A DNA stretch of 39,723 nucleotides. It comes from a virus (Duplodnaviria; Caudoviricetes). The position numbers and the translations under genes are program-made. Positions 1-39,184 of this stretch are shown in pieces. Below the pieces are notes generated by a model that searched no databases, was not told the DNA's origin, and was given only the letters and a program-made list of their open reading frames with translations. Location: the IMG/VR virus record IMGVR_UViG_3300048577_000433, positions 1 through 39,723 of that record; one strand, written 5' to 3'. How positions within the stretch are numbered: position 1 is the first letter of the stretch; each line of letters opens with the position of its first letter.

Positions 1-1386
1 CTATTCTGCCGGCTTCTGAATCCGGGATTCGCGCTTGCACGCCTTGCATTCCCGGCCGACCCCAGACCAGTTTCGGGAGTTCTTTGGGAAATCGCTTTTG
101 GGCTTAAAAGACTGACACTTATAGCACCATGCCGAATTGTCGTCCTGATACTTCCTTCTGGATGCCCCGTTAAATGACGACCGAATGAAGTCGAGGCGCT
201 TACGGTCTTCTTTGCGGATCAATTCCAGATTCCAAATCTTGAAATTCTTCTTGTTTCCGTCAAGGTGGTACACGTCTTCATCTGGCTCAAGCGCGCGTCC
301 AAGGTATTTCTCTATGACGAGTATATGCACCTTCACGGTTTTTTTGAGGACATTACGCTTTTTGAGGGAAGGTAATTTGTCGATGGCGCTGCGCTTACCT
401 GCTCTCCTGACCCGCTGATAGACCTCCTGCACCATGCGAACGGTGGTATGCCCCATCATACCGGCCACAATGCCCGGATCAACGCCCTGCTCCAGGAGCG
501 ATGTCGCGAAATGGTGGCGAATGTCATAGAGCCTAATCCGACGCGTAATCCCTGCTGCGGCTTTAGCGTTTTCCCAAGCGCCCTTGACGCTGGAAACAGG
601 CTTCCCCCGCCAGTGAATTGGCCACGCGATCCCGGCCGCGTCATCGTCTGCTTTCCATCGGTTGAGCAAGGGCAAGATATTCCTGGCCAACGGGACATCG
701 CGCCACGGCAGACCGCCCTTGTCGGCCGACATGACGCGGACCCAACCGTCCTCTAGGTTGAAATCATCCCAGCGAAGAGCAAAAAGCTCAGACTGGCCAG
801 GCCGCACGCCCAGATAAAACGCAAGTTGGATGGCCCGGACAAGATGCGGCGGGCTTACGTCAAGGATGGCCTCCACCTCTTCGCGCGAGGGAGGCATGGC
901 CTTCGAAACCTGCTTGTCTTTCTCGACAAAGAAGTCGGCGCCGGGATTTTTGTTGATGAGCTTGTACTTCTTGCCCCACCTCAGGACAGCGCGCACACGC
1001 TCCCAAATCCTGACGCCAGATCCGGGAGAGCTTTTTTGGCTCGCCTTCTCCACGATCTTGGACAGGTCCTCTTCGGTGATTTTTTCAACGACCTTGTCTC
1101 CGATTACGGGAAACACCCAGGCTTCCAGGGTGTAGATGTCGGCGGCCAGCGTCGTTGCCGCCAGGGCGCGGCGGGTCTGGTATTGATCTACGAGATTGCG
1201 GAATGTCAGCCCTGAAACGGGCTCGGGTGCGAGAGCGGCGGGATTGATTTTTTTGATCGACTTAACGACATGTTCGCGCGCTTCGGCCTCTCGTTTCGAG
1301 TCGAAGTATTCCTTCTCGGGCTGTGATCTTCCGGGAATGCGGTACGAGACTATCCATTTCCCCTTACCGCCGCGCTGATATGCCAT
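1..1386 (-). CDS. int: Tyrosine recombinase/integrase with C-terminal HNH-like and zinc-ribbon extension
   Basis: GVRPGQSEL (R), ADKGG (K), LYDIRH (YxxR in place of HxxR), MMGH, EVY (Y). N-terminal arm-binding-like segment KGKWIVSYR. Start moved to the ATG at 1386. Confidence 0.93.
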   Translation of the reverse strand: MAYQRGGKGKWIVSYRIPGRSQPEKEYFDSKREAEAREHVVKSIKKINPAALAPEPVSGLTFRNLVDQYQTRRALAATTLAADIYTLEAWVFPVIGDKVVEKITEEDLSKIVEKASQKSSPGSGVRIWERVRAVLRWGKKYKLINKNPGADFFVEKDKQVSKAMPPSREEVEAILDVSPPHLVRAIQLAFYLGVRPGQSELFALRWDDFNLEDGWVRVMSADKGGLPWRDVPLARNILPLLNRWKADDDAAGIAWPIHWRGKPVSSVKGAWENAKAAAGITRRIRLYDIRHHFATSLLEQGVDPGIVAGMMGHTTVRMVQEVYQRVRRAGKRSAIDKLPSLKKRNVLKKTVKVHILVIEKYLGRALEPDEDVYHLDGNKKNFKIWNLELIRKEDRKRLDFIRSSFNGASRRKYQDDNSAWCYKCQSFKPKSDFPKNSRNWSGVGRECKACKRESRIQKPAE

Positions 1387-1429
1387 GCGTCGATGTCTAC
1401 GGCAGGATGTAGCCGGGGGCAACAGGGAG

Positions 1430-6243: not shown

Positions 6244-6387
6244 CTATTTCTTCACGTGCTGCTCCACGCAGCGGTCGCACACGGCGACGGATCGCAGGTC
6301 GTCCGCCGGATTCGGGTTCTTGATGCTGGTCAGATGGTCCGCTTCGGCTTTGCAGATGTAGCAACGCAGGGGATTGGTCGGGCTCAT
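6244..6387 (-). CDS. Small zinc-finger protein (47 aa, below the ORF-track cutoff)
   Basis: Hand translation MSPTNPLRCYICKAEADHLTSIKNPNPADDLRSVAVCDRCVEQHVKK; GGAG RBS directly after the upstream stop. Confidence 0.65.
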   Translation of the reverse strand: MSPTNPLRCYICKAEADHLTSIKNPNPADDLRSVAVCDRCVEQHVKK

Positions 6388-6399
6388 GGTGACGATCTC

Positions 6400-7116
6400 C
6401 TAGTCGAGGGTCATGAAACAGGGCTGATGCCGGCCCGGGGCGGCCTGGCTGGCGAAGGCCATTCCGGCGATGGACGTACCGGCCCGGCTCCCCGTCGCCA
6501 TGGCGGTAAGGCTGCCGGCGGTCGGCCCGGGCACGAGCATGGAACCGATGCCGGCCGTGCCGGCGGCCAGACAGCAGGCCACGCCGCCGGTCTGGGCGAA
6601 GAAGTAGTGCCCGGGGGGCACGTCACAGGTGGCGATGCCGGCCGGCAGATTGTTTTCGGTGGCCGAGGCGGCCACGCCGCACCAGGGCGAGGGCACGAGC
6701 GACACCACGGAATCGGCGGTCAGCGCCGCCCGAACGGGCTCGGCCAGGGTGAGGACGGTCGTGCCGCCGGCCGGGCAGGCAGTGTTGGAGAGGATGCGGT
6801 ATTGCCGGCCGCGGCCTTCGCTGGCGACGATCTGGAGGTAGCCATCCTCGTAAGCGTTTTCAGCCACGGGCGCGTCCCCGACGACCAGGCTCACGATACG
6901 GTCACCTACGGCCGCCGGTGTGGCGGGCCGGTTGGTATGGGCGGGATTCGCCACCGGGGCCATGGCCAGGGAGCCGGCCGGGATGTCAGCGCCGGCTTTG
7001 GCGTATCGGAACTTGCGGCCGTCGGCGGTGATGCGCAACGCGCCGATGGCTTCACGCTTGGCTTGCGAGGTTTCGCCGACGTCCTGGGTAAAGGAAAGCT
7101 TCATGGGTTGGGCCAT
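6400..7116 (-). CDS. Early-operon paralog of the capsid-adjacent (decoration/cement-like) protein
   Basis: Collinear with 36117-36836: LRIxADGRKFRxAKAGA, SATExNLPxGI, AQTxG, MLVPGxTAGSLxAM; AAGGAGG RBS. Confidence 0.9.
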   Translation of the reverse strand: MAQPMKLSFTQDVGETSQAKREAIGALRITADGRKFRYAKAGADIPAGSLAMAPVANPAHTNRPATPAAVGDRIVSLVVGDAPVAENAYEDGYLQIVASEGRGRQYRILSNTACPAGGTTVLTLAEPVRAALTADSVVSLVPSPWCGVAASATENNLPAGIATCDVPPGHYFFAQTGGVACCLAAGTAGIGSMLVPGPTAGSLTAMATGSRAGTSIAGMAFASQAAPGRHQPCFMTLD

Positions 7117-7139: not shown

Positions 7140-8078
7140 TTAGGAGAGGTTGCTGTGGCAGGCGTGGGCGCGGCGATTCGAGCAGATCAGGTTGCCGTGC
7201 CACAGGATCTTCATGGCGCGTCCGGCCGGGCCGCCCAGCTCAACCCACGGCTGGCGGGCGAAGAAGCCGTTTTGGTTGATGGCAAAGCCCAAGTAGTTGG
7301 TGTTGACGGCAAAGAGGTTGCCGGCCGGGCAGTAGTCGTCAGGGGCGAGGATCATGCCTTCGTAGACAAGATGGGCGAACCCGGCCTGGGCCACGTTGTC
7401 GTCGGTGACAAAGCGCCCCTGCGCCATGAGGATGGCGGCTACTTTTTGGTAAAGCGTCGAGGTGGTCACGGCGACGTTGGGCCGCACCGCTCGCGTTTTC
7501 CCCGCGTGATCGGTGAGCTTGAACGTTGCAGCGTCACGGGTTTCGTTCAGGACATGCAGGCTGATGGCCTCATGGTCATCCAACGTGATGCCCTTCCAGG
7601 GCTTGGAGCCGTCAGCGGCAATCAGGTCATTTTCGGCGATGCCGCCGTAGGGCTTGTCAGGGTCGGGGCTGGTCAGCGCCCGCAGGCCGGTCAGGGTCGG
7701 GGCCTCGTCGCCGGCGGCGGAATAGAGCGTGGCGGCCAGCCACCCGGCGCAGGTACGTTGGGCGGTCTCGATCTTTTGGGTCACGTACTGGACCTGGGCA
7801 TAGTCGCCACTGTCCTTATGGTCTGATTCATAGACCGTGGCATTGCCGTAGGCGTGTTTCCAGTTGAACGAGGCGGCCAGCCCCTTGGGGGCCATGGGGT
7901 CATCCAGGGGCACGCGGATCGTCTCGCCGCCGGCCGGCCGCTCGAACAGGCCGGCCTGGCGGTTCATGAGCAGGTCCAGCAGGAACGAGTTGCGGAAGTA
8001 GATGTCCACGGCCCGGCCACCGGCGGCGGCGAAGTAGTCGTTGGTGATGGATTCGATCTCACCGAGAGAAAGGGACAT
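7140..8078 (-). CDS. Early-operon paralog of the major capsid protein (internal 16-aa deletion)
   Basis: Collinear with 35107-36075: SFLLDLLMN, AASFNWKHAYGNATVY, PYGGIAE, DDYCPAG, MKILWHGNLICSNR; AAGGAGG RBS; alternative in-frame start at 8303. Confidence 0.92.
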   Translation of the reverse strand: MSLSLGEIESITNDYFAAAGGRAVDIYFRNSFLLDLLMNRQAGLFERPAGGETIRVPLDDPMAPKGLAASFNWKHAYGNATVYESDHKDSGDYAQVQYVTQKIETAQRTCAGWLAATLYSAAGDEAPTLTGLRALTSPDPDKPYGGIAENDLIAADGSKPWKGITLDDHEAISLHVLNETRDAATFKLTDHAGKTRAVRPNVAVTTSTLYQKVAAILMAQGRFVTDDNVAQAGFAHLVYEGMILAPDDYCPAGNLFAVNTNYLGFAINQNGFFARQPWVELGGPAGRAMKILWHGNLICSNRRAHACHSNLS

Positions 8079-8295
8079 GTGGTCCTCCTTGGGGCTGCTG
8101 GCCCGAGTCGCGGCGATGCGCCGGGCTTCGAGGTATTCCAGGCGAGTTTCGATAAGGGCGTCGAGGCGGGCCTCCAGATCGGCGAAGATCGATTCCAGGC
8201 CGGCGATACATGGGTCCGTCTCGGCGTCCTGGCTGTTTCCTGGGGTGACCACGGGCCCGGCATGATCGGGCCCGTGGATTGAGGTTGTGTCAGGG

Positions 8296-9567
8296 TTATT
8301 CATTCGGCTGGCCGTCCGTCGCCGGGCACAGGCCCTTCTGGTTGCAGGCGGCGCAGTCCGTGGACAGGCGCACCATGGCTCCGTTGTCCGGGCACTCGAA
8401 GGCCTCTTCTTGGGCCTGGCCCATGGGCTGGGTGTCTTCGAGGGGAGCGGTTTCAGTCGGCTGGCCCTGGGCGGGCGGGGCTTGCTCGGGGTCGGGGACA
8501 ACGCCGGCAGCGGCCAGGGCGTCGGCCGCCATCTGCTTGACCTGTTCGCACTGGACGTAGCTCCAGTCCTTCGAATAGACGCCAAAGTCTTTCTCAATAC
8601 CGGCAACATCGAGTCCGGCTTCTTGAGCCGCCCTTACGGCTGCTTCACGCGACGCTGTTGTGGCCCTGGGCTTCTTGCTTTGTTCGCCTCCCAAGGGCGC
8701 GCCCTTATCAGCCGGAACGTTGGTCAGAGGGGGGAAGACCTCATCGGGATCAGCCAAGCCGTCTTTGATCTCCGTGGCCAAGGAGCGGACGTTCATGTAT
8801 TCGTCCCTGGTCCACTCGCTGGCGGGCTTACCGATCTTGGCGAATACCCGTTCTTCCGTGACGCCATACTTGGCGAGAAAGGACAGCACTTTGCCCTTCG
8901 CGTAGACGAACCGGGTCGGGTCCTCGAGGCCTTTCGCTTCGGAAGCCTTGGCGACCTCAATGGCTTTTGTTTCAAGCCACTTCGGGACGCCGGCGAAGAT
9001 GACGTTCCGCAGGGCCTTGGACTGGCCGACCTGAAAGCCCATGTCGTCTGCACGCTCCGCGTCGTAGTTTCCACCGACGGGATTGTGCTTCTTTCTGAAG
9101 AGACGAGACGTGGTGAAGCCGGTTTCCAGATCGATCCATGATGCGGTGAAGACGTCGATACCGTCCCTGGTTTCCAATTCGACATCGACCACGCAGTTGC
9201 CCCAGTTCCTGGCGATGCAGTAGGCCAAACCGATGGAACCGCCTTCGACGACAGAATTGCGGTTTGTCTTTCTGTTTTTGACCTCCCACCGGTAATAGAA
9301 GTCCTCGCCGGCGCAGGCGGCTTCCTCCAAGACCTTTTCGACAATCGCGGCAAGGTTCCTGGGCTTCTGAACCTTGATTGCGGTTGCATACTTGGTCTGC
9401 ATTCGCTGCATGGGTTCTGTGGCGGAGAGGTGGATGGACTGTGGCGATTGCTCCTGGCCGAATTTGGCCGCCGGAGAATCGTTTCCTTTCACAGCGGGCA
9501 GATATTCGGGAGGAAGCCCGGTTATGACCCGCATATCCTCCGGCGTCATGTACTGGCCATTGTTCAT
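8296..9567 (-). CDS. Putative single-strand annealing/recombination protein
   Basis: Directly downstream of a PD-(D/E)XK exonuclease; GGSIGLAYCIARNWGN...WIDLETG...GQSKALRNVIF core; flexible C-terminus ending in a Cys cluster. Family is inferred from context. Confidence 0.55.
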   Translation of the reverse strand: MNNGQYMTPEDMRVITGLPPEYLPAVKGNDSPAAKFGQEQSPQSIHLSATEPMQRMQTKYATAIKVQKPRNLAAIVEKVLEEAACAGEDFYYRWEVKNRKTNRNSVVEGGSIGLAYCIARNWGNCVVDVELETRDGIDVFTASWIDLETGFTTSRLFRKKHNPVGGNYDAERADDMGFQVGQSKALRNVIFAGVPKWLETKAIEVAKASEAKGLEDPTRFVYAKGKVLSFLAKYGVTEERVFAKIGKPASEWTRDEYMNVRSLATEIKDGLADPDEVFPPLTNVPADKGAPLGGEQSKKPRATTASREAAVRAAQEAGLDVAGIEKDFGVYSKDWSYVQCEQVKQMAADALAAAGVVPDPEQAPPAQGQPTETAPLEDTQPMGQAQEEAFECPDNGAMVRLSTDCAACNQKGLCPATDGQPNE

Positions 9568-9569
9568 GG

Positions 9570-10391
9570 CTATTCGCTCCTTTTGGGGGGATTCTTGCGA
9601 TGTGCGGGGATATGGGGACACGTCCACCAGTATCCGCAGTATTTCGGGGAACACTTCCAATGACCCGGCTCGGCAGGTGGAAAGATTCCAGCCTCTATCT
9701 GGCGCAGCATGATTTTCACTCTGGACACAAGAGCCTGGAAGTCAGCCGGTTCACGTGACGTTTCGAGGCGATGATGGGCCGGTTCCTTGGTCCGGGTGAA
9801 AATCTCGAAGGAGAGTTTTGACGGGTAACGGCCTCTGTTGTGGGCAATCACTTCGTTGTACAGGGTGGCCTGAACATCCGTATCGGCTTGGCCTTGCGGC
9901 CATTTGCGCGCTGAGTTTTTGAGGTCCAGCCACCATTCGCCCTGGCCGTTCCTGGACAAGACATCCAGCGTGATACGAAAAGGCACCGGTAATTCGGGGT
10001 GATCCATGAAAAGCGTGGTTTCTACGAGAATGGGCCGGACCTGGGGAGCAAGGTCGCTTCGATACAAGCCGGCCAGTGCAATCGTGGTGTCCAGCCCTTC
10101 GCTGATCTGCTTCCGGGCACTCGGAGCTTCATCCAGGGGGATAAAAACCCCTTCGTCACGGACGGCTCGGACATAAGCGTCTCTTGCGGCATCCTGAATG
10201 GTGTCCATGGGTACGTCCTGACCGGAGAGGAGTTTGGCTTTGTGATTGACCTCGGCTCCACGATGGAGTCCCGTGCCAACTCTCCCAGCTATCCCCGCAG
10301 GAATAACCTCCCCTTCGATCCATCTTCGGCGCACCGTTTCCCCACACATGGCCCAGGATTTGATGAGGGTTTGATTGATGTAGTTGATCAA
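9570..10391 (-). CDS. PD-(D/E)XK RecB-family exonuclease
   Basis: VGTGLH, LVE, ITLDVL, WLDLKN, QATLY and terminal WKCSPKYCGYWWTCP. Confidence 0.88.
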   Translation of the reverse strand: MINYINQTLIKSWAMCGETVRRRWIEGEVIPAGIAGRVGTGLHRGAEVNHKAKLLSGQDVPMDTIQDAARDAYVRAVRDEGVFIPLDEAPSARKQISEGLDTTIALAGLYRSDLAPQVRPILVETTLFMDHPELPVPFRITLDVLSRNGQGEWWLDLKNSARKWPQGQADTDVQATLYNEVIAHNRGRYPSKLSFEIFTRTKEPAHHRLETSREPADFQALVSRVKIMLRQIEAGIFPPAEPGHWKCSPKYCGYWWTCPHIPAHRKNPPKRSE

Positions 10392-11822: not shown

Positions 11823-11898
11823 TGGTGGAGATGGCCGGGATCGAACCGGCGGCCTCCTGCGTGCAAGGCAGGCGCTCTCCCAGCTGAGCTACACCCCC
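11823..11898 (-). tRNA. tRNA-Ala(UGC)
   Basis: 76-nt cloverleaf GGGGGTGTAGCTCAGCTGGGAGAGCGCCTGCCTTGCACGCAGGAGGCCGCCGGTTCGATCCCGGCCATCTCCACCA; TGC anticodon, G3:U70, encoded CCA. Confidence 0.97.
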
Positions 11899-12738: not shown

Positions 12739-14136
12739 TTATTTCCAGTTCTGTTTGGCGTAGTCCGCCAGGATGTATTCCAGGATTGTGAGATTTGAAC
12801 TGAGGCTCATGGCCCCCGGAGAAGCTAGCGCCCCAATGATGGTAAAATACTGGCTTATGGACAAATTTTGTCCGGCGTAGAGGGTGCCGAGCCAGGTCCC
12901 GTACTGGCTCCACTGCATAGATGTTTCGGCTCCCATGTAGATGAGTTTGGCGGCGGAGCGGACCTTGGCCTTGGTGGCAGCGGGCAGGGCCTCGATCTGC
13001 TCCATGGTGAGGTAGCTGCCGCCGGTGTCGGCGGTCTTGATGTGGACGTAGGTGTATTGGCCGGTGGTGATGGACCCGGCGGACAGGATGGTCAGCGGCT
13101 GCCCAGAGGACACATCGAGATAGAGATCCATGTATTGCGAATACTGGATGCTCGTAAACACGTAGGTGCCGCTGGCCAGATAAGCGGTCCCGTGCTGGTT
13201 GGTTGTCCAGGCCTTGTAGGCCGTGCCGGCCGGGATTGGCTTGGCAGCGTTGGAGTTGGGCACGTTGTCCGTGGCGCCGCTGGTGATGGTCGGGGCGACT
13301 GGCGCGGTCGTGGCCGGACAGGTGACGGTGGGCATGGTGTAGGGCAGAGGCGTGCCGATGGAATCGTATTGCGCCCGGTTGATGGCCCCGCCGGCCTGGC
13401 CGGTTTTGGCTATGGACGCGTATTGGTTCATGGTGATCGAGCCGGTGGCGTAAGCGTTCGACTTGGCCTTGGCGTACTGGCCCACGGTGATGTTGCCGTT
13501 GGCCGACACGTCGCCCGCCACCTCGGCGTACTGGTTGAGCATGACGTTGCCTGAGGCGGCGCAGACATAGCCGCCGACCGTGGCGTATTGGCCGAGGTCG
13601 GCCGAGGTGTCGGATATCACGTTGCCGCTTACGGCGGCGTACTGGTTGAGCAGCAGGTTTTTGCCGGCCACCGAGCCGTTGACCACGGCATTTTGGGGCA
13701 GGGCCAGGTTGCCATCGGTGTTGATGACGTAGTCGCCGCCGGACCATTCAGACGACTTTGGCGTGATCGAGGCTGCGGCCAGGCTGTTGGCCTCCAGCCC
13801 TGTGCCATCGTTGACGGTACCGACGGATCGCACGGGGTAGACTCCACCGCTGGGAGCCTGGGCCGTAAGCGTGAATTTGGCTCCCCCGGGCATGGTGTAG
13901 GTCGCGCCCGCGCCGGCCCGGATCGTTTCCAGGGCTGCGCTGTCCAGGGTCTTGGCGTACTGGATGCCGGACCAAGCGGCGTAGTATGCGGCGTGGCTCT
14001 GGCCGGCGGTGACGACGCCAAGCCCGGCAGTAGAGGAAAGGCGGCTTATGCCGGCGGCGAGGGCGCTGACGACGATGATGGCAATGACAACGACAAGCAG
14101 GGTTCCGCCGTGGGCGGGCGAGCGGGATGACGACAT
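12739..14136 (-). CDS. PilX-like minor pilin/adhesin with beta-helix repeats
   Basis: Class III-like signal HGG|TLLVVVIAIIVVSALAAG lacking Glu5; VRSVGTV strand; ~17-19-aa repeats with a recurring QY motif; AAGGAGG RBS. Confidence 0.7.
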   Translation of the reverse strand: MSSSRSPAHGGTLLVVVIAIIVVSALAAGISRLSSTAGLGVVTAGQSHAAYYAAWSGIQYAKTLDSAALETIRAGAGATYTMPGGAKFTLTAQAPSGGVYPVRSVGTVNDGTGLEANSLAAASITPKSSEWSGGDYVINTDGNLALPQNAVVNGSVAGKNLLLNQYAAVSGNVISDTSADLGQYATVGGYVCAASGNVMLNQYAEVAGDVSANGNITVGQYAKAKSNAYATGSITMNQYASIAKTGQAGGAINRAQYDSIGTPLPYTMPTVTCPATTAPVAPTITSGATDNVPNSNAAKPIPAGTAYKAWTTNQHGTAYLASGTYVFTSIQYSQYMDLYLDVSSGQPLTILSAGSITTGQYTYVHIKTADTGGSYLTMEQIEALPAATKAKVRSAAKLIYMGAETSMQWSQYGTWLGTLYAGQNLSISQYFTIIGALASPGAMSLSSNLTILEYILADYAKQNWK

Positions 14137-14156
14137 AGGCCCTCCTTATATGGAGG

Positions 14157-14187
14157 ACCATAGATATTTATATATCTATTTTGTCAA
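14157..14187 (-). promoter_or_regulatory. Putative promoter/operator of the PilX-like gene
   Basis: TTGACA (14187-14182), 19 bp, TATGGT (14162-14157); palindrome ATAGATAT-N4-ATATCTAT at 14160-14179. Confidence 0.45.
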
Positions 14188-14222
14188 TAAGAATATGCAT
14201 CAAAATAAAGCACTCCTTAATT

Positions 14223-14924
14223 TCACTCACCCCTTACGACGCAAGATCGCGCACGAGAGTAAATCACGCAACAAAAAGTGTAAAACGAAGGATTGTTGAG
14301 CTTCCTCTCAGAATATATATCTTCAATTTTATCATAACATGCCCGTCGTGCAGCATTCAGCATGTCTCGATGCTTTTGCTTGGCCAGCTTCAATTCATCA
14401 TCGTCGAAGAAAAGACACCCATCTTTATCAATACGGTCACAAATCTTTGTTGCAAATGAACGATAAGCCAATATATCACTATATTCTGAAGAAAGCCAAC
14501 CATACTTCCTGCTGCCAATTTCTAAAACAGTTTCTATAGAATCACAGTCGTGATACACATGAGAAATAGCAGTTTTTAATGCTCCAAAATCTTCATCTGT
14601 CTGATGCAAAAGATCGTTGATTGACACACCAACCGAGTCTACTTTTGACAATGTCACATCAAAAAATTTATTAAGTCTTAAACATAGGTTTCGGCGGTCT
14701 TCTATTTCGTTCTTGTTGTGGTAGTAATAAACGCCGAATAAAATACCAATAACAGAAATAAAAAAAGCTACAACAGGAGCAACTGTAGAATAGTAGTCTT
14801 TAAGGTAGGTCATCTGGCAACTATTCGCAATATCGACAAAGGAAATAGCCGGAAGAAAAGGTATTGCTATTAAATACAAACAGAATGAAAAAGCCAAAAC
14901 TCCCAAAAGAACAAAGCTCTTCAT
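14223..14924 (-). CDS. AT-rich membrane protein (2 N-terminal TM helices + helical domain)
   Basis: Hydrophobic segments at about residues 3-26 and 47-67; 6 nt from the upstream gene. Confidence 0.75.
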   Translation of the reverse strand: MKSFVLLGVLAFSFCLYLIAIPFLPAISFVDIANSCQMTYLKDYYSTVAPVVAFFISVIGILFGVYYYHNKNEIEDRRNLCLRLNKFFDVTLSKVDSVGVSINDLLHQTDEDFGALKTAISHVYHDCDSIETVLEIGSRKYGWLSSEYSDILAYRSFATKICDRIDKDGCLFFDDDELKLAKQKHRDMLNAARRACYDKIEDIYSERKLNNPSFYTFCCVIYSRARSCVVRGE

Positions 14925-14930
14925 AAAGCT

Positions 14931-15266
14931 CTATTTTTTCCAATACCCATCGCGCAATTCTATAAAGATAGTTTCAAGCTTTACTGGACTTATATTAACC
15001 ATCCTGATCTTTTTAAGAATCTTTTCCGGCGTCGAAAATTTTGCAAAGAATGCAAAAGCTTCATTTGCGAAAGAAGGTCCCAGCTTTTCTATGCCAGAAA
15101 AATCGAGTTCAATCTCTGGGTCGTCATTCTTCCATTTATCTTCATTTTCCAATTCACTAAGATACAACGACCGAAACTCAAGCGCATTAAACTTACCATC
15201 CCCTTGGTGCTCGTCACGATTGACAAGCCGGTTTGAGAATTGTGTCGCGATATTTATAGTTTTCAT
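14931..15266 (-). CDS. STAS-like (DUF4325-type) protein
   Basis: IELDFSGIEKLGPSFANEAF motif; 111 aa. Confidence 0.85.
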   Translation of the reverse strand: MKTINIATQFSNRLVNRDEHQGDGKFNALEFRSLYLSELENEDKWKNDDPEIELDFSGIEKLGPSFANEAFAFFAKFSTPEKILKKIRMVNISPVKLETIFIELRDGYWKK

Positions 15267-16440
15267 CTTGGCTACGCCTTGTTTTTATCGTGAGATGATA
15301 CATTGTACCGGCAAAGACTTTGCCACCATTACTTCCAAACGCCTCTTCTTTCCCATGCTCATCCAGTATATAATAGCCCTTACACGACAAAATCGCAAGC
15401 CGTATACCTAGTGCTCTGCAGTTTTCTTTTATTCTTTGTAGGCCTTTTCCTCGACGCTGCCCTTGTTCATAATATTCTACAATCCCGAACCATTCCTTTT
15501 TCTTCTCTGGAGCAGTAATCGCACCACTAATATTTCTTTCCATTGCCTTCTTAATAAACATCCCATCATGGTCAGGCGAAGAAGCTAGCTCTTTTAGTAT
15601 CATATTCCTTTGAGGACCGGTCACCAGACTATTTCTAATACCAATTCCATTGTCTGCAATGCATACAGAAATAATTTCGTGGGTTTCATGAAATTGTGCA
15701 AGCATCCACCATCCAGAATCTCGTCTGTAAATGCCATGCTCTGTTACGTTGTTAAATATTTCTGTAGAGATTCTATCGTAAAATACTTCAATTTCATCTG
15801 GGCTCAAATCAGAATACCTGACCAGCAGAGCCTTTAATTCATCTTCACGTGCGGATGTTCCAAATCCGTCATGTTCTCGTTTTATTTTAACAATTTCACT
15901 TGGTGAATAGTGATAGAGATCGTCTACCTCTTTTATTTTCACATAATCATAGAAACCACAGTGATACAAATAAGAATTGACAGCGCCGCTTTCAGAAGGG
16001 AATTGTGCAATCTGCTGTGGTTGTCCTCTGTGTCCGCTAAGCTCTGTCCATTGCTTCAAAGCACACAGCAGTGTTACTGCAGAAGGCCAAACACGAGTGC
16101 ATAGCCCAAAATCAATTGTCATCATACGCGCTCTTGAGTTAAGCAGCTCCATCGCGTAGACAAGAAAATTTTGAACTAATTGTGGTTCTTCAATCCCGAA
16201 TTCGCCGTCTATCTTTATTACTTCTGATTTCTTTTTATAGTTTGTCGGTCTGTAATATTCGGAGACAAAATGAGATCGATACTTTTGCTGCTCTGAAAAT
16301 ATAGATAACGGGATGGTCTTTTTGTATTTCTTTTTCCTTTTGCTGTTTCTATCTTGACCTGAATCGCGCTCAAACCTTTTTCTATTTAAAACAAACTCTC
16401 TTTTCTTGGACTCAGAAATAACGCTATGTTTCTTTTTCAT
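15214..16440 (-). CDS. GHKL/HATPase_c ATP-binding protein with N-terminal STAS-like region
   Basis: N box STEIFNNVTEHG, G1 ISVCIADNGIGI, G2 RRGKGL, terminal FAGTMY; N-terminal IDFGLCTRVWPSAVTLL...YLYHCGFY. Confidence 0.82.
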   Translation of the reverse strand: MKKKHSVISESKKREFVLNRKRFERDSGQDRNSKRKKKYKKTIPLSIFSEQQKYRSHFVSEYYRPTNYKKKSEVIKIDGEFGIEEPQLVQNFLVYAMELLNSRARMMTIDFGLCTRVWPSAVTLLCALKQWTELSGHRGQPQQIAQFPSESGAVNSYLYHCGFYDYVKIKEVDDLYHYSPSEIVKIKREHDGFGTSAREDELKALLVRYSDLSPDEIEVFYDRISTEIFNNVTEHGIYRRDSGWWMLAQFHETHEIISVCIADNGIGIRNSLVTGPQRNMILKELASSPDHDGMFIKKAMERNISGAITAPEKKKEWFGIVEYYEQGQRRGKGLQRIKENCRALGIRLAILSCKGYYILDEHGKEEAFGSNGGKVFAGTMYHLTIKTRRSQDENYKYRDTILKPACQS

Positions 16441-16502
16441 TAATTTTCCTTGGTCAAATCAAATATTGCATCTTGTGAAGCAATTGAGTCAACTTGGTGT
16501 AT

Positions 16503-16856
16503 CTACTTTCTCTTAGGAAGACGATGCCCATACTTCAAAAGAAGTTTATCATCCTCATCAGATTCCATTTCAGCGTATGTCCGCCGTTTCTCTTGGAACA
16601 TAATCGCTGCGTAAGCAAAGTACAAAATCGTTATCGCAAGCCAATGCAAAATCAGAGAGACAAAATCAATCGAAATCCCAAAAAACGAATTTCCAGGATG
16701 TTCTGTTGCAGGCGGCGCAAAAATAAAGCCATACCCTGCTGGTTTGTTGACAATCCCCGCGCCAGGGATGTTGGCAACATATTTCCATGGAGGACAGATC
16801 GTCAGCAAGGCCATAAGCAAAATGTAGACGATGACCACGGTCCGCTTTGATGGCAT
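16503..16856 (-). CDS. Small two-TM membrane protein downstream of the repressor
   Basis: Two hydrophobic helices; starts 8 nt after the repressor stop (alternative GTG at 16862). Confidence 0.7.
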   Translation of the reverse strand: MPSKRTVVIVYILLMALLTICPPWKYVANIPGAGIVNKPAGYGFIFAPPATEHPGNSFFGISIDFVSLILHWLAITILYFAYAAIMFQEKRRTYAEMESDEDDKLLLKYGHRLPKRK

Positions 16857-16864
16857 GTCCACCT

Positions 16865-17362
16865 CTATGTTCTAGAAAATCTCTTTAATTCATTCCTCAA
16901 TTCACGGTTTTCTTCACGCAAGGTACGATTATCGTCGCGTAGTTCCTGACATTCACGGCGACATGCTTCAAGTTCATTTTTTAATTCTACATAATGAGAC
17001 TCTAATGGTTGATTTCCATACTTTGACAAAGGTGATTTAACATCGGCGCGCAGATAAGAAGAACTATGTCCATTCCCTGACACATCGACTGCTGGCAACT
17101 TTGCGTCTCCAGTAGCTATCAGAGATTCCTCTTCCAAGCACTTGTTTGCAAACAAAAGAAACGTCTCCAGGCTCATCCCCAAATTTTGAGCCAGACGTTT
17201 TATGGATTTGATCCCGAGCCCTTTGGCGTGTTTGGAATCAAGAGTATAGTCCAGCATCCTCGGAGAGTTAAGGCCAGCCTGGGCCGCCAGTTGGTCCTTG
17301 TCCCTGCCGTCTCGCATCAGGGCACGAAGCGCTGCCGCAGTGGCTGCTTTGATTTCGCTCAT
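16865..17362 (-). CDS. Immunity repressor (XRE HTH + C-terminal coiled coil)
   Basis: DKDQLAAQAGLNSPRML...IKRLAQNLGMSLETFL; divergent from the cro-like gene; no S24 peptidase motifs; alternative GTG start at 17380. Confidence 0.72.
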   Translation of the reverse strand: MSEIKAATAAALRALMRDGRDKDQLAAQAGLNSPRMLDYTLDSKHAKGLGIKSIKRLAQNLGMSLETFLLFANKCLEEESLIATGDAKLPAVDVSGNGHSSSYLRADVKSPLSKYGNQPLESHYVELKNELEACRRECQELRDDNRTLREENRELRNELKRFSRT

Positions 17363-17373
17363 AGGAATTTTAT

Positions 17374-17441
17374 GAACCACCAGTTCTATTAGGTCAAAAA
17401 GTTCTCGGCCCGTTGACGTGACGAACCTTTGGTTCTAAACT
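17374..17441 (+). promoter_or_regulatory. Rightward early promoter PR with operators
   Basis: TTGACG (17413-17418), 17 bp, TAAACT (17436-17441); GAAC-N5-GTTC at 17374-17386 and 17423-17435, degenerate copy at 17392-17404. Confidence 0.82.
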
Positions 17442-23840: not shown

Positions 23841-24263
23841 ATGGACCAGAAAGAAGCGACCCAAGCGGCCTTGGAAATCGTCAAAGCCCAGGCGTCCGTG
23901 CGGGCGATGACCGACATCGAGATCAACAGCATGATCGCCAGCGTGTCGGCCGGCATCCTCGCGGCCTCCAAAGGTGACACCGTCATGGACAGCATGGCGG
24001 ACATTTTCAAGGCCTCGGTCATCGATCCCCAAAAGGCCGTCACCGAACGTGCGGTGGTCTGCCTGGAGTGCGGGAAGAAATTCAAGATCCTGACCAAGAA
24101 GCACTTGGGCGCCCACGGACTGACCCCCGAGGAATACAGGGCCAAGCACGGCATGAAGAAGGGCGCGCCCCTGATCGCCAAGGGCCTGCAGCGCGAGCGG
24201 CGCAAAAAGATGAAGGACATGAAGCTGTGGGAGCGGCGCGGCCAGCAGGAAAAGGCCGAATAA
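23841..24263 (+). CDS. mucR: MucR/Ros family transcriptional regulator
   Basis: VVCLECGKKFKILTKKHLGAHGLTPEEYRAKHG...PLIA; AAGGAG RBS. Confidence 0.93.
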   Translation: MDQKEATQAALEIVKAQASVRAMTDIEINSMIASVSAGILAASKGDTVMDSMADIFKASVIDPQKAVTERAVVCLECGKKFKILTKKHLGAHGLTPEEYRAKHGMKKGAPLIAKGLQRERRKKMKDMKLWERRGQQEKAE

Positions 24264-34170: not shown

Positions 34171-35094
34171 ATGCCTGACCTGATTTCCACCGTGCCCGGA
34201 GACATCGGCAGCGGCGGGCCGGCCATGCCGGCGGCGGCTCCCGATCCGCAACCGGGCCCGGAGTCCGGGACTCCCACTCCCGGCCCAGGGCCGGCCACGC
34301 CGCCGCCCAGCGCGCCCGACAACGGCGATCCCGGCAAATCCGGGGCCCCGGCCCTGGCCTCCGACACGCCGCCCGATCCCAAGCCCGCCGCCGCCCCGAC
34401 GCCGGCCGCGCCGCCGGCTCCCGTTGAATCGCCCGAAGTGCTGGGTCTGCGCGCGCAGGTGGAACAGCTGACCCAACTGGTCGGCCAACTCATGCCGTCC
34501 AAAGCAGAGACGCCTGCGGCTCCGGCCCGGGACTTCGCGGCGGAAAAGGCTGCTCTGGACGCCGACTTCAAGGCCGAAAAGCTCGACACCACCACCTACA
34601 TGGCGAAGGTCACGGCCCTGGCTACTGAGCAGGCCAAGGCCGATGCCCTGGCCGTGGTCAGCCAGGGGAACCACAACACCGTTCAGGCGGTACAGGCCGA
34701 GCTGAAAAAGGCCCAGGACAACGCGTCCTGGAAGGCCCTGTGCGAGGCCCATCCCGGGCTGCAGGGCTTCGAGCGGACGCCCGAGTTCGCCGCGCTCAAG
34801 GCTGCGAACCCTCTTCATGATCCCCTTTCGGCCTTCCTGACGCACCAGCTCACCGAGACCAAAGCCGCCACCGAAAAGGCCGTGGCCGACGCGGTGAAGG
34901 CCAAGGAAAAGGAGATGGTCGAGGCAATCCGGGCCAAAGGCCATGCGGCCGTGCTCGGAAACCCCGGCGGCCAGGCCCCCAAGGCCGGCGTCGATTTCGA
35001 CGCCATGCTCAAGGAACCGGATAAATATGGCGGACTGGCCGCCGTGCAAGCGGCCAAGCTCAAGCACCAGCGGGCCAGTGTCGGCGCGCAATAA
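34171..35094 (+). CDS. Scaffolding protein
   Basis: Pro/Ala-rich N-terminus, helical remainder, immediately upstream of the capsid gene. Confidence 0.78.
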   Translation: MPDLISTVPGDIGSGGPAMPAAAPDPQPGPESGTPTPGPGPATPPPSAPDNGDPGKSGAPALASDTPPDPKPAAAPTPAAPPAPVESPEVLGLRAQVEQLTQLVGQLMPSKAETPAAPARDFAAEKAALDADFKAEKLDTTTYMAKVTALATEQAKADALAVVSQGNHNTVQAVQAELKKAQDNASWKALCEAHPGLQGFERTPEFAALKAANPLHDPLSAFLTHQLTETKAATEKAVADAVKAKEKEMVEAIRAKGHAAVLGNPGGQAPKAGVDFDAMLKEPDKYGGLAAVQAAKLKHQRASVGAQ

Positions 35095-35106
35095 AGGAGA
35101 GACCCT

Positions 35107-36075
35107 ATGCTGACCTTTGAAGAACTCGAAAGCATCACCAGCGACTATTTTGCTGCCGCTGACGGCCAGGCCGTGGACATTTATTGGCGCGAATCCTTCC
35201 TTCTCGACCTGCTCATGAATAAAAAACGGGGGCTGTTCGAACGTCCTTCCGGCGGCCTTCACATCCGCATTCCCCTCAACTATTCCGGTGCCGAAGGCGG
35301 CTTTTTCTCCCGCTCCACCCCTCTGTCCAGCGACGACCGCGAGTCCATCAACGCCGCCTCGTTCAACTGGAAGCACGCTTACGGCAACGCCACCGTCTAC
35401 CTGACCGACGAGCTGGTCAGCAACGGCGATATCGCCTCCGTCCAATTCGTCAACCAGCGGATCGAAAACGCCCAGAAAACCTGCTCCGGCTGGCTGGCGA
35501 AGACCCTGTATGCCGACGGCTCCGACATCGCGCCGACCCTGACCGGCCTTGGCTCCTTGGTCAGCACCGATACCAGCCGGCCCTACGGCGGCATCGCCGA
35601 GAAAGACATGGTGGCCGAAGACGGTTCGACTCCCTGGCACGCCGTTTATGACGCCACGGCCGAAGCCATCAGCCTGGAGGTTCTGCAGACCATGCGTTCC
35701 TCGGCAAAGCTGGGCGACGGGGCCACCGGCAAGCCCAACGTGTCCGTCACCACCGAGGCGCTCTACAACAAGGTTTCCCGCATCCTCCAGATCCAGCAGC
35801 GGTTCGTGAAGGATGAAGACACGGCCAAAGCCGGATTCACCCACCTCGTCTACGAAGGCATGACCCTGGCCGCCGACGACTACTGCCCCGCCGGTCATTG
35901 CTACGCCTTGAACACCAACTACCTGGGCTTCGCCATCCACCAGGATGGCTTTTTCAAGCGTATCCCTTGGGCCGATCTGATCGGTCCCGTCGGCCGTACC
36001 ATGAAGATTCTCTGGCACGGCAACCTTATCTGCTCCAACCGCAAGGCCCACGCCTGCCACGCGAACCTGAACTAA
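35107..36075 (+). CDS. Major capsid protein
   Basis: 322 aa after the scaffold; GGLHIRIPL...AASFNWKHAYG, AGFTHLVYEG...DDYCP, WHGNLICSNR typical of HK97-fold capsids; AAGGAG RBS. Confidence 0.9.
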   Translation: MLTFEELESITSDYFAAADGQAVDIYWRESFLLDLLMNKKRGLFERPSGGLHIRIPLNYSGAEGGFFSRSTPLSSDDRESINAASFNWKHAYGNATVYLTDELVSNGDIASVQFVNQRIENAQKTCSGWLAKTLYADGSDIAPTLTGLGSLVSTDTSRPYGGIAEKDMVAEDGSTPWHAVYDATAEAISLEVLQTMRSSAKLGDGATGKPNVSVTTEALYNKVSRILQIQQRFVKDEDTAKAGFTHLVYEGMTLAADDYCPAGHCYALNTNYLGFAIHQDGFFKRIPWADLIGPVGRTMKILWHGNLICSNRKAHACHANLN

Positions 36076-36116
36076 TCCTCATCAGCTAAGCGTCCTCGTC
36101 TAAAGGAGAAATCGCC

Positions 36117-36836
36117 ATGTCCACGCCCATCAAAAACATGTTCAGCCACGGCCTGTTCGAGGCCAAGGCCACCACGCCGGAAGCCCTCGGCACCCTGCGC
36201 ATCCTGGCCGATGGCCGAAAGTTCCGCCTGGCCAAGGCCGGCGCCGCCGCGCTCTCCCCGGGCAAGCTGGCCGTAGCCCCGGACGCCGTGGCCAACCACA
36301 TCAACCTGACCGGCTCCGCGATCAAGGTCGGCGAAAGCCGAGTGCCCGTGACCGTCGGTGCCACGGCCGTCACGGACGGTCAGTACGTGGGCGGTTTCCT
36401 GCAGATCAACGCCGGGACCGGAGCCGGCATGCAGTACAAAATCCAGTCGCACGGCACCTGCGCCGCCTCGGGCGTCCTGGTGGTGGTCCTGGAGGAACCC
36501 ATCCGCGTGGCACTGGACGCCACTTCCAAGCTGTCCCTGATTCCCTGCCCCTGGAACGACACCGTGGAATCGGCCACGGAGGAAAACCTTCCCGTGGGCA
36601 TCACTCTGTGCCCGGTTCCGGCCGGGTACTTCTACTGGGCCCAGACCTCGGGCCAAGCCGTCGCCCTGATCGCCGGCACCCCGGCCAAGGGCACCATGCT
36701 CGTTCCCGGAGCCACGGCCGGCAGCCTCGCCGCCATGAACGCTACCCTGGACATCGATCAGCCCGTGGTCGCCACCATGGGGCACACCGCCGGTGTGGAC
36801 GGCCAGTACAAGCCGGTCCTGCTGGCCATCGAATAA
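36117..36836 (+). CDS. Capsid decoration/cement-like protein
   Basis: Directly after the capsid gene; DGRKFRLAKAG and YFYWAQTSG; Gly/Ala/Thr-rich beta composition. Confidence 0.68.
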   Translation: MSTPIKNMFSHGLFEAKATTPEALGTLRILADGRKFRLAKAGAAALSPGKLAVAPDAVANHINLTGSAIKVGESRVPVTVGATAVTDGQYVGGFLQINAGTGAGMQYKIQSHGTCAASGVLVVVLEEPIRVALDATSKLSLIPCPWNDTVESATEENLPVGITLCPVPAGYFYWAQTSGQAVALIAGTPAKGTMLVPGATAGSLAAMNATLDIDQPVVATMGHTAGVDGQYKPVLLAIE

Positions 36837-38725: not shown

Positions 38726-39184
38726 ATGGCGCTTCGTCTTTCCACCGGCCTTCGCAATATGCTGCTTGGTACGTCCAGTTTCAAAACGATCATGCAAAAC
38801 GGCGTGATCCGCATCTTCCCCGGCGTGCAGCCGGCCACGGCTGACGACGGCGAAGGGGCCACGCCTCTGCTCGAAATAACCGTCTCTTCCGGAGCGTTCA
38901 CCCCGGGCACGGCCACGAACGGGCTGAACTTCGCCGCCCCGGCTTCCGGAGCCTGCGCCAAAGCGGCCGGCGAAGTCTGGTCCGGCGCGGCCACGAGTTC
39001 GGGCACGGCCGGCTGGTTCCGGTTCTACGCCAACGATCGCACCACCGGGGCCGACACGACTCACGCCCGCTTCGACGGCTCGGTGTCCACTTCGGGTGCC
39101 CAGCTCAACATGAGCTCCACGGCCATCACCGCCGGCGCCACCACCACCATCGACAGCTTCGTGGTTACCATGCCGGCTTCCTAG
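38726..39184 (+). CDS. Virion/tail structural protein
   Basis: MALRLSTGLRNMLL...GTAGWFRF...RFDGSV; AGGAGG RBS. Confidence 0.7.
   Translation: MALRLSTGLRNMLLGTSSFKTIMQNGVIRIFPGVQPATADDGEGATPLLEITVSSGAFTPGTATNGLNFAAPASGACAKAAGEVWSGAATSSGTAGWFRFYANDRTTGADTTHARFDGSVSTSGAQLNMSSTAITAGATTTIDSFVVTMPAS

Follow-up and report, generated by a model that had tools for sequence, protein, structure and literature searches.

In SaPIbov5, the capsid homologue Ccm forms homotypic capsomers and the E-loops differ, as described in the sections of the Ccm study drawn on here (PMC8569155). The capsomers of HK97 are held by A-domain contacts at the center and by E-loop/P-domain contacts at the rim (excerpts of PMC9698820 and PMC12002296), and the domain order of the HK97 fold given in the former was used for naming. 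In P22, the scaffold binds the coat protein's N-arm through a helix-turn-helix at its C-terminal end, and removal of the C-terminal 11 residues of the scaffold abolishes assembly (10.1101/2022.12.13.520362, available portion). A GTA is distinguished by several distant loci that hold only packaging and structural genes, and in the same partial source the TerS of known GTAs is said to lack a DNA-binding domain (PMC11841831).

The window analyzed here is the whole stretch of 39,723 nt of record IMGVR_UViG_3300048577_000433 and is part of the genome of a temperate short-tailed phage. Tree topology and sequence identity together show that the phage took a three-gene insert of 1.9 kb (8303-6400) from its Solidesulfovibrio host, namely from a domesticated GTA-like element with two loci. 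An integrase gene is found at the left end of the window, followed by a leftward operon that includes a PD-(D/E)XK nuclease. The rightward module contains the terminase, P22-like portal, scaffold, capsid, adaptor, and head closure genes. Downstream of the portal, the late head set spans 34171..36836 on the plus strand and consists of the phage's own scaffold (34171-35094), the late capsid (35107-36075) with a full loop of 25 aa at 35278-35352, and a putative decoration gene (36117-36836). A sibling prophage in genome G215 is 78-84% identical to the late region of the window at the nucleotide level, with a capsid that is 86% identical, which places the host of the phage in the same genus (Solidesulfovibrio).

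Several other features of the window were recorded. The integrase ORF (1-1422, minus strand) contains an HNH_3 domain (residues 364-406) that follows the catalytic domain, and a tRNA-Ala(TGC) is located within the leftward operon at 11823-11898 (minus strand). A 465-aa protein (12739-14136, minus strand) combines an N-terminal pilin-like hydrophobic segment with bactofilin-like repeats (weak Pfam match), and its N-terminus has a further match close to the G215 prophage. An island of 40% GC within the 63% GC genome occupies 14001-17000 and contains three minus-strand ORFs (14223-14924, 15214-16440 (phrog_3364), and 16865-17380) that are candidate accessory or defense genes. A regulator of the ROS/MucR family is encoded at 23841-24263 (plus strand), and the G215 prophage has one too.

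The insert begins at the start codon of the scaffold and ends with the stop codon of the putative decoration gene, and the early capsid is its middle gene. It is flanked upstream by a phrog_3657 gene beside the PD-(D/E)XK nuclease (8296..9570, minus strand), whose stop marks the insertion point, and downstream by a 47-aa Cys-containing ORF (6244..6387, minus strand). The G215 sibling prophage is without the insert, and there the 47-aa ORF directly follows the upstream gene. The early ORF is open in frame upstream to an ATG at 8303, which overlaps the previous stop. In this long form of 387 aa, the first ~65 residues of the host scaffold (8079..8303, minus strand) are fused in frame to the capsid, and alignments show that the rest of the scaffold, including the conserved C-terminal tail, is deleted. 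The early major capsid gene (7140..8078, minus strand), derived from the host element, encodes 312 aa from an internal ATG at 8078, which is preceded by the Shine-Dalgarno-like AAGGAGG (8084..8090, minus strand) inherited from the capsid gene of the host element. The similarity of the early and late DNA continues through the gene next to the capsid (6400..7116, minus strand), which has a late counterpart and encodes a putative decoration or cement protein, as judged from its position and a weak Atlas lead (0.81 to the PF23982/PF22758 clusters). A scan for promoters and terminators remained at the chance level (8 vs 6.9 expected).

Known copies of the cassette come from three database records and a single contig of low depth. 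The scaffold-capsid fusion is also present in P0004 and P0123. A sister allele was obtained from run X1 as a single contig of depth 3.2 that lies on window positions 7881-8295 and is 97-99% identical on both sides; most other contigs aligned with the window were short fragments from relatives. Its two ATGs are separated by 367 nt vs 225 nt in the window, and it retains a longer scaffold piece that is still without the tail. With this spacing the scaffold piece is out of frame with the capsid, and thus the fusion of scaffold and capsid is not required. The early-type decoration proteins appear to share contigs with the three short capsids, as they come from three records in which the longest contig has the same size as in the records of those capsids.

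The preliminary description held that the early capsid lacks the tip of its predicted E-loop, and retranslation agrees exactly with the lengths on which this was based: 9 aa in the early protein (7878..7904, minus strand) vs 25 aa in the late protein. Translation likewise confirms that the early capsid has lost a net 16 aa in frame between conserved flanks and has gained a net 6 aa before PNV. Two other early copies share the deletion; the capsids of P0004 and P0123 are 87-92% identical to the window copy, and both contain the same 9-aa segment. In an independent run, one contig covers 7881-8079 with 1 difference from the window. The recurrence of the stub in P0004 and P0123 and in the independent contig excludes chance or an assembly slip, and an assembly artifact was rejected as the source of the short loop on the same evidence. 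The full loop is found in 118 of the 120 listed homologues, the two short ones being the window's own protein and P0004; P0123 is the third short copy. The segment measures 25-41 aa in all 148 rows of a family alignment with identities down to about 24%, for which the sequences were hand-chosen from the homologue matches, with near-duplicates, fragments, and early copies left out. No related capsid in that alignment has a similarly short loop, none was detected at the 19 viral loci or the 21 genome loci, and an exact DNA pattern scan for the junction in viral and metagenome contigs returned 0 loci. Two other arrangements were observed. In the viral contig L018:10273-13292, the capsid is followed by four homologues of the putative decoration gene in tandem, and in L010:8166-9994 the capsid gene is split between residues 91 and 92 by ~850 nt, possibly an intron or insertion element.

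Structures were predicted for both proteins. The AF2 model of the late capsid has the HK97 fold and aligns with 7F38 over 279 residues (Z 20.7, rmsd 3.3 Å). Strands 52-58 and 81-98 flank the segment 59-83 that is deleted from the early copy, and this segment sits directly before the spine helix (108-133). The name E-loop follows from the topology of the HK97 fold. The model of the early capsid is well folded (pLDDT 91.6); the N-arm, the P-domain with its spine helix, and the A-domain are all present, the extended E-loop hairpin is absent, and a stub hairpin (strands 53-57/68-72) is all that is predicted in its place. Foldseek matches of the early model include HK97, phage capsids, and encapsulins, and the protein belongs to PHROG 9953 (major head protein). 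No Pfam family was found for either window capsid, and a PDB search with single sequences gave no match, whereas a profile search found PDB relatives. The family is distantly related in sequence to the capsids of the cyanophages A-1(L) (7F38) and Mic1 (6J3Q), of the Mx8/Mx9-like phages, and of MetMV, and to Pfam SU10_MCP. The predicted topology and the HMM alignment to 7F38 support assignment of the deleted segment to the tip of the E-loop, as had been proposed. The comparison drawn at the same time with the T-number of encapsulin shells finds no support in this analysis.

The closest full-length relatives of the early capsid are chromosomal, with 21 loci spread over Solidesulfovibrio, Desulfolutivibrio, and related genomes. 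Its ungapped identity is 80.6% to the host capsid of locus L020 vs 64.3% to the phage's late capsid. By tblastn, the early decoration protein is 69-79% identical to the Solidesulfovibrio host copies, and the N-terminal extension of the early ORF is 51-85% identical to the host scaffolds. Maximum-likelihood trees, built from 41 capsids and 35 decoration proteins, place the early genes within the host-element clade, with the L021/L022 group (titled S. magneticus) as nearest neighbors. The early capsid had been called a capsid paralogue. The position in the host clade contradicts a duplication of the late capsid in situ, and the AU test, which rejects a clade that unites the early capsids and five late capsids of phages (p = 6e-48), rules out such a duplication.

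Among 25 genomes of the genus Solidesulfovibrio, the capsid of the host element was detected in 23 and its TerL in 24, whereas a sample of 301 genomes from the family yielded the capsid in just 22. At 12 of the 21 loci, the same three host genes lie upstream of the head-tail cluster; the others are short contigs or a different genus-level site. The terS-terL pair is located at a second site with flanks common to all 5 genomes taken, and in L038 and L056 the head-tail and terminase loci are neighboring. A leader motif located ahead of the head-tail cluster is found again in front of the terminase locus in 5 of 5 cases with 22-30 bits, where the best of 20 shuffles reached 9.6 bits. A genome search with the short leader pattern stayed at background level and gave no third locus, and the motif was not found in the window or in the G215 prophage. 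No match to the integrase or replication genes of the window was obtained at the element loci. The TerL motifs are intact, and the dN/dS of the element's capsid is 0.01-0.25 for seven host pairs. The host TerS (191 aa) retains the whole Terminase_2 domain (positions 1-130 of 141), and its N-terminal part aligns with the phage TerS. The portal of the element has 602 aa vs 767 in the phage, and its scaffold has about 190 aa vs 307. Examples of the element loci, which were numbered L020-L058, are L023:6816-20912 and L041:7881-11384. With its far-apart loci of packaging and structural genes only, the host element appears GTA-like.

The G215 prophage encodes a 175-aa protein and a giant LPD38-like protein in an open frame of 2,136 aa (Atlas 0.96), which from their position and size would be ejection proteins. 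Both genes are missing from the syntenic place in the host element. Three queries for them matched in 4, 2, and 5 of the 25 genomes, with full-length matches in G215 and G304 only. Since it is without the giant protein of the phage, the host element may be a defense against this phage or a parasite of it. Two types of endolysin occur in 5 and 3 of the 25 genomes, neither of them genus-wide, and fast-evolving substitutes may escape such searches. An endolysin-like gene (GH108-like by sequence reading) is located upstream of terS at L038:8-493 and is not genus-wide in Solidesulfovibrio. On the phage side, a virion gene at window positions 38726-39184 (plus strand, phrog_3758) is 83-95% identical in amino acids and up to 90% identical in nucleotides to the copy in the host element, while its neighbors are 30-40% identical to theirs. 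This difference indicates that parts have been swapped between phage and element, in a second, recent exchange.

The changes in the insert are concentrated. In the scaffold, the C-terminal tail, its most conserved part, is lost in both alleles seen. In the window capsid, 20 of 45 host-conserved positions are changed in the F-loop and A-domain vs 6 of 169 elsewhere (p = 5e-11), a comparison from which the E-loop was excluded and for which the regions were picked after the data had been seen. The corresponding counts for the other two early copies are 17/45 vs 10/169 and 21/45 vs 10/169. The late capsid of the window gives 9/45 vs 25/169 (p = 0.49), and all three late capsids are without clustering. 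The F-loop region (7809..7832, minus strand; named from HK97 topology) is invariant in the host and differs among the three early copies, as do about half of the A-domain positions; some A-domain changes are fixed in all three. The net 6-aa insertion lies in an A-domain loop (7482..7526, minus strand) that is predicted to form a new β-hairpin (186-189/195-198). In the decoration gene, 12 of 28 host-conserved positions are changed in residues 201-238 vs 9 of 138 elsewhere, and this lesion is common to all three copies. It includes a same-length replacement of the loop at residues 207-216 (6469..6498, minus strand), of which the host and late proteins share the original; the replaced loop is common to P0314 and P0361. 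The original motif is kept in 36 of 46 matches and missing from 10, and Desulfolutivibrio-type host copies differ. Because distant host copies vary in this loop as well, the lesion in the decoration gene is weak evidence.

The remainder of the early capsid is of host type. Over the N-arm and P-domain, 207 of 228 positions are identical to host L020 vs 162 of 229 to the late capsid, and the corresponding values for P0004 are 202/228 to the host and 156/229 to its own late capsid. Relative to the host, pS is 0.2-0.4 and pN is 0.02-0.10 in these regions, so that the similarity is to be ascribed to selection and not to recent conversion; recent gene conversion of the conserved regions is ruled out by this synonymous divergence. 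The whole-gene dN/dS of the early genes vs the host is 0.25-0.41, which by codon comparison marks them as relaxed but not neutral. The substitution patterns thus show one focused lesion per insert gene and an N-arm and P-domain that are under purifying selection.

A subunit with the host-type N-arm and P-domain, no E-loop tip, and a changed A-domain, encoded together with a tailless scaffold, suggests a dominant-negative reading. The products of the insert are probably, by a modest degree, decoys that would enter or titrate the procapsid assembly of the host element and stall it. The leftward operon would be expressed early or from the prophage, before late assembly. The scaffold fragment would pair with the host scaffold through its N-terminal helix but would not have the coat-binding tail. 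The early capsid would accept host scaffold tails and the E-loop of a neighbor on its host-type N-arm and P-domain, but could neither donate an E-loop nor close the A-domain ring, and shells would end or be misformed. The phage's own shell would be spared because its scaffold and capsid diverge in those regions (about 30% and 71% identical, respectively). The phage would gain in that host-element heads are stopped from taking portal, terminase, tail parts, and phage DNA. With the host element in 23 of 25 genomes, the target would nearly always be present. The original suggestion that the early protein may co-assemble but block or reshape the lattice stays the best idea, most likely with another partner. 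A complex prediction for the scaffold fragment and the host scaffold scored 0.01 and counts neither way. As counterpoints to the decoy, the insert is rare, and the G215 sibling prophage persists without it. The host and late capsids are also 72% identical, which makes self-poisoning a real cost for the phage.

The main rival to the decoy is suggested by Ccm, which also changes intra-capsomer surfaces and keeps inter-capsomer surfaces (PMC8569155, in the sections available). The early capsid would make its own capsomers, for example pentamers, dock on the capsomers of the host element through the conserved P-domain, and alter the size or shape of the host-element shell, and the phage could then use or neutralize the shells of the host. 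The altered intra-capsomer surfaces and the retained P-domain are those expected from the partial account of SaPIbov5 Ccm, the early model folds (pLDDT 91.6) with a new A-domain hairpin, the fused scaffold piece resembles a delta domain, and the A-domain changes shared by the three copies could be a new interface rather than a loss. However, the variation of the F-loop and about half of the A-domain among the three copies fits relaxed constraint better and favors loss over a new interface. Ccm moreover has a full E-loop, and the aligned family contains no loop shorter than 25 aa; both this route and the benefit attached to it are judged unlikely. It is more doubtful still that the early protein joins the late capsid of its own phage in a common assembly and changes or controls the lattice, as first proposed. 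An identity of 64% between the two capsids, with the flanks conserved, and the presence of both genes within one genome in at least two records, are consistent with such a role, but the origin and the retained surfaces are host-type and not late-type, the gene is located in the leftward operon, and the sibling with an 86% identical capsid is without such a gene. The late capsid is thus most likely not the partner.

In another reading, the non-assembling, host-like capsids would bind and blunt a host sensor of phage capsid or titrate some other host factor. Bacterial receptors for conserved phage proteins exist (PMC12803255, in the portion consulted), and early placement with lost polymerization surfaces suits a soluble decoy; this immune reading nevertheless leaves unexplained why scaffold, capsid, and decoration pieces are retained together and why a host-type rather than a phage-type surface is conserved, and we consider it quite improbable. 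The same genus is infected by related temperate phages whose capsids are 60-86% identical, and the insert occupies an accessory position in the leftward operon, as would suit exclusion of superinfection by broken subunits from a lysogen that poison the heads of incoming phages. The conserved surfaces match the chromosomal element, however, and neither the 19 viral loci nor the trees yielded a phage whose capsid is of host type, which leaves little probability for exclusion. Neutral decay of a captured fragment is given an equally low probability. Its long branches, the deletions that affect two of the three genes, the variable junction in the scaffold, and the dN/dS vs the host of 0.25-0.41, above the host-host capsid range of 0.01-0.25, are those of a decaying fragment, but every frame is open in the three records, whose capsids differ by 8-13%, the changes are sharply clustered, pN is far below pS in the N-arm and P-domain, and the insertion is gene-precise with an overlapping start.

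The preferred reading, a dominant-negative decoy aimed at the host element, would link two things that are seldom met together, an undescribed genus-wide GTA-like element, whose ancestral phage family still infects the hosts, and a phage cassette directed against it. Should the cassette block the element, then the element costs the phage something, and a direct test would be available of whether hosts retain domesticated phages of the GTA-like kind for the sake of gene transfer or of defense. As a natural one-sided HK97 subunit, the cassette would map the surfaces that start a shell vs those that extend it. Tentatively, the domesticated ejection-deficient virion genes that Solidesulfovibrio keeps from this phage family might serve as a defense or parasite by which phage DNA and parts are diverted into dud heads. 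Some phages would answer with captured and early-expressed host genes, each cut at one assembly surface, as a counter-defense assembled from the genes of the defense itself; this further proposal is possible but doubtful. The named Solidesulfovibrio isolates L026 and L027 carry the element, which makes tests feasible. A literature search (few subscription papers, no supplements) returned no report of this element or cassette, nor of a phage with lesioned copies of genes from a GTA-like element of its host.

The host element resembles FpGTA of Faecalibacterium, which is likewise two-locus, podovirus-like, and near-ubiquitous in its genus. Both contain a terminase-portal-scaffold-capsid set and no replication genes (excerpts of PMC12946183). 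In the same excerpts the TerS of FpGTA is without an obvious DNA-binding domain, whereas the host-element TerS keeps the whole Terminase_2 domain. Unlike for FpGTA, no genus-wide endolysin was found here. The Dd1 GTA of Desulfovibrio desulfuricans comes from the same bacterial family as the host element; compared by description, its predicted TerS has 125 aa and no DNA-binding domain vs 191 aa here (PMC11841831, PMC6854486, both in part). Unlike Dd1, the present capsid occurs in only 22 of 301 sampled genomes of the family. The capsids of A-1(L) (7F38), Mic1 (6J3Q), the Mx8/Mx9-like phages, and MetMV share the HK97 fold with the window proteins, and the aligned relatives keep the full hairpin. 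The early capsid is set apart from the encapsulins by its neighbors, which are scaffold and decoration homologues in a phage operon rather than a cargo-enzyme gene.

The scaffold fragment is comparable with the SaPI scaffold mimics CpmB and Rcm, in that a scaffold-like protein is proposed here to compete with the true scaffold (PMC12409344, in part). CpmB and Rcm keep the coat-binding part and redirect size according to the same partial source, whereas the phage fragment keeps the N-terminal helix and has lost the tail. The resemblance of this lost tail to the C-terminal part of the P22 scaffold is an analogy only. The closest likeness of the early capsid is to Ccm of SaPIbov5, in which the capsid homologue of one element interferes with the assembly of another, as is proposed here. 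Ccm cannot build capsids alone, and its E-loop and N-arm differ from those of the target capsid; it is satellite-borne, acts against a helper phage, and gives functional small shells (PMC8569155, sections consulted). The early capsid is likewise distinct from its proposed target, with 80.6% identity to the host capsid and lesions in the E-loop, F-loop, and A-domain. Unlike Ccm, it has lost most of the E-loop, and its carrier is not a satellite (PICI) without capsid genes but a full temperate phage with its own head module and lesioned copies of three host-element genes. Capsid homologues for interference are known from satellites, and the cassette would reverse the direction of such interference.
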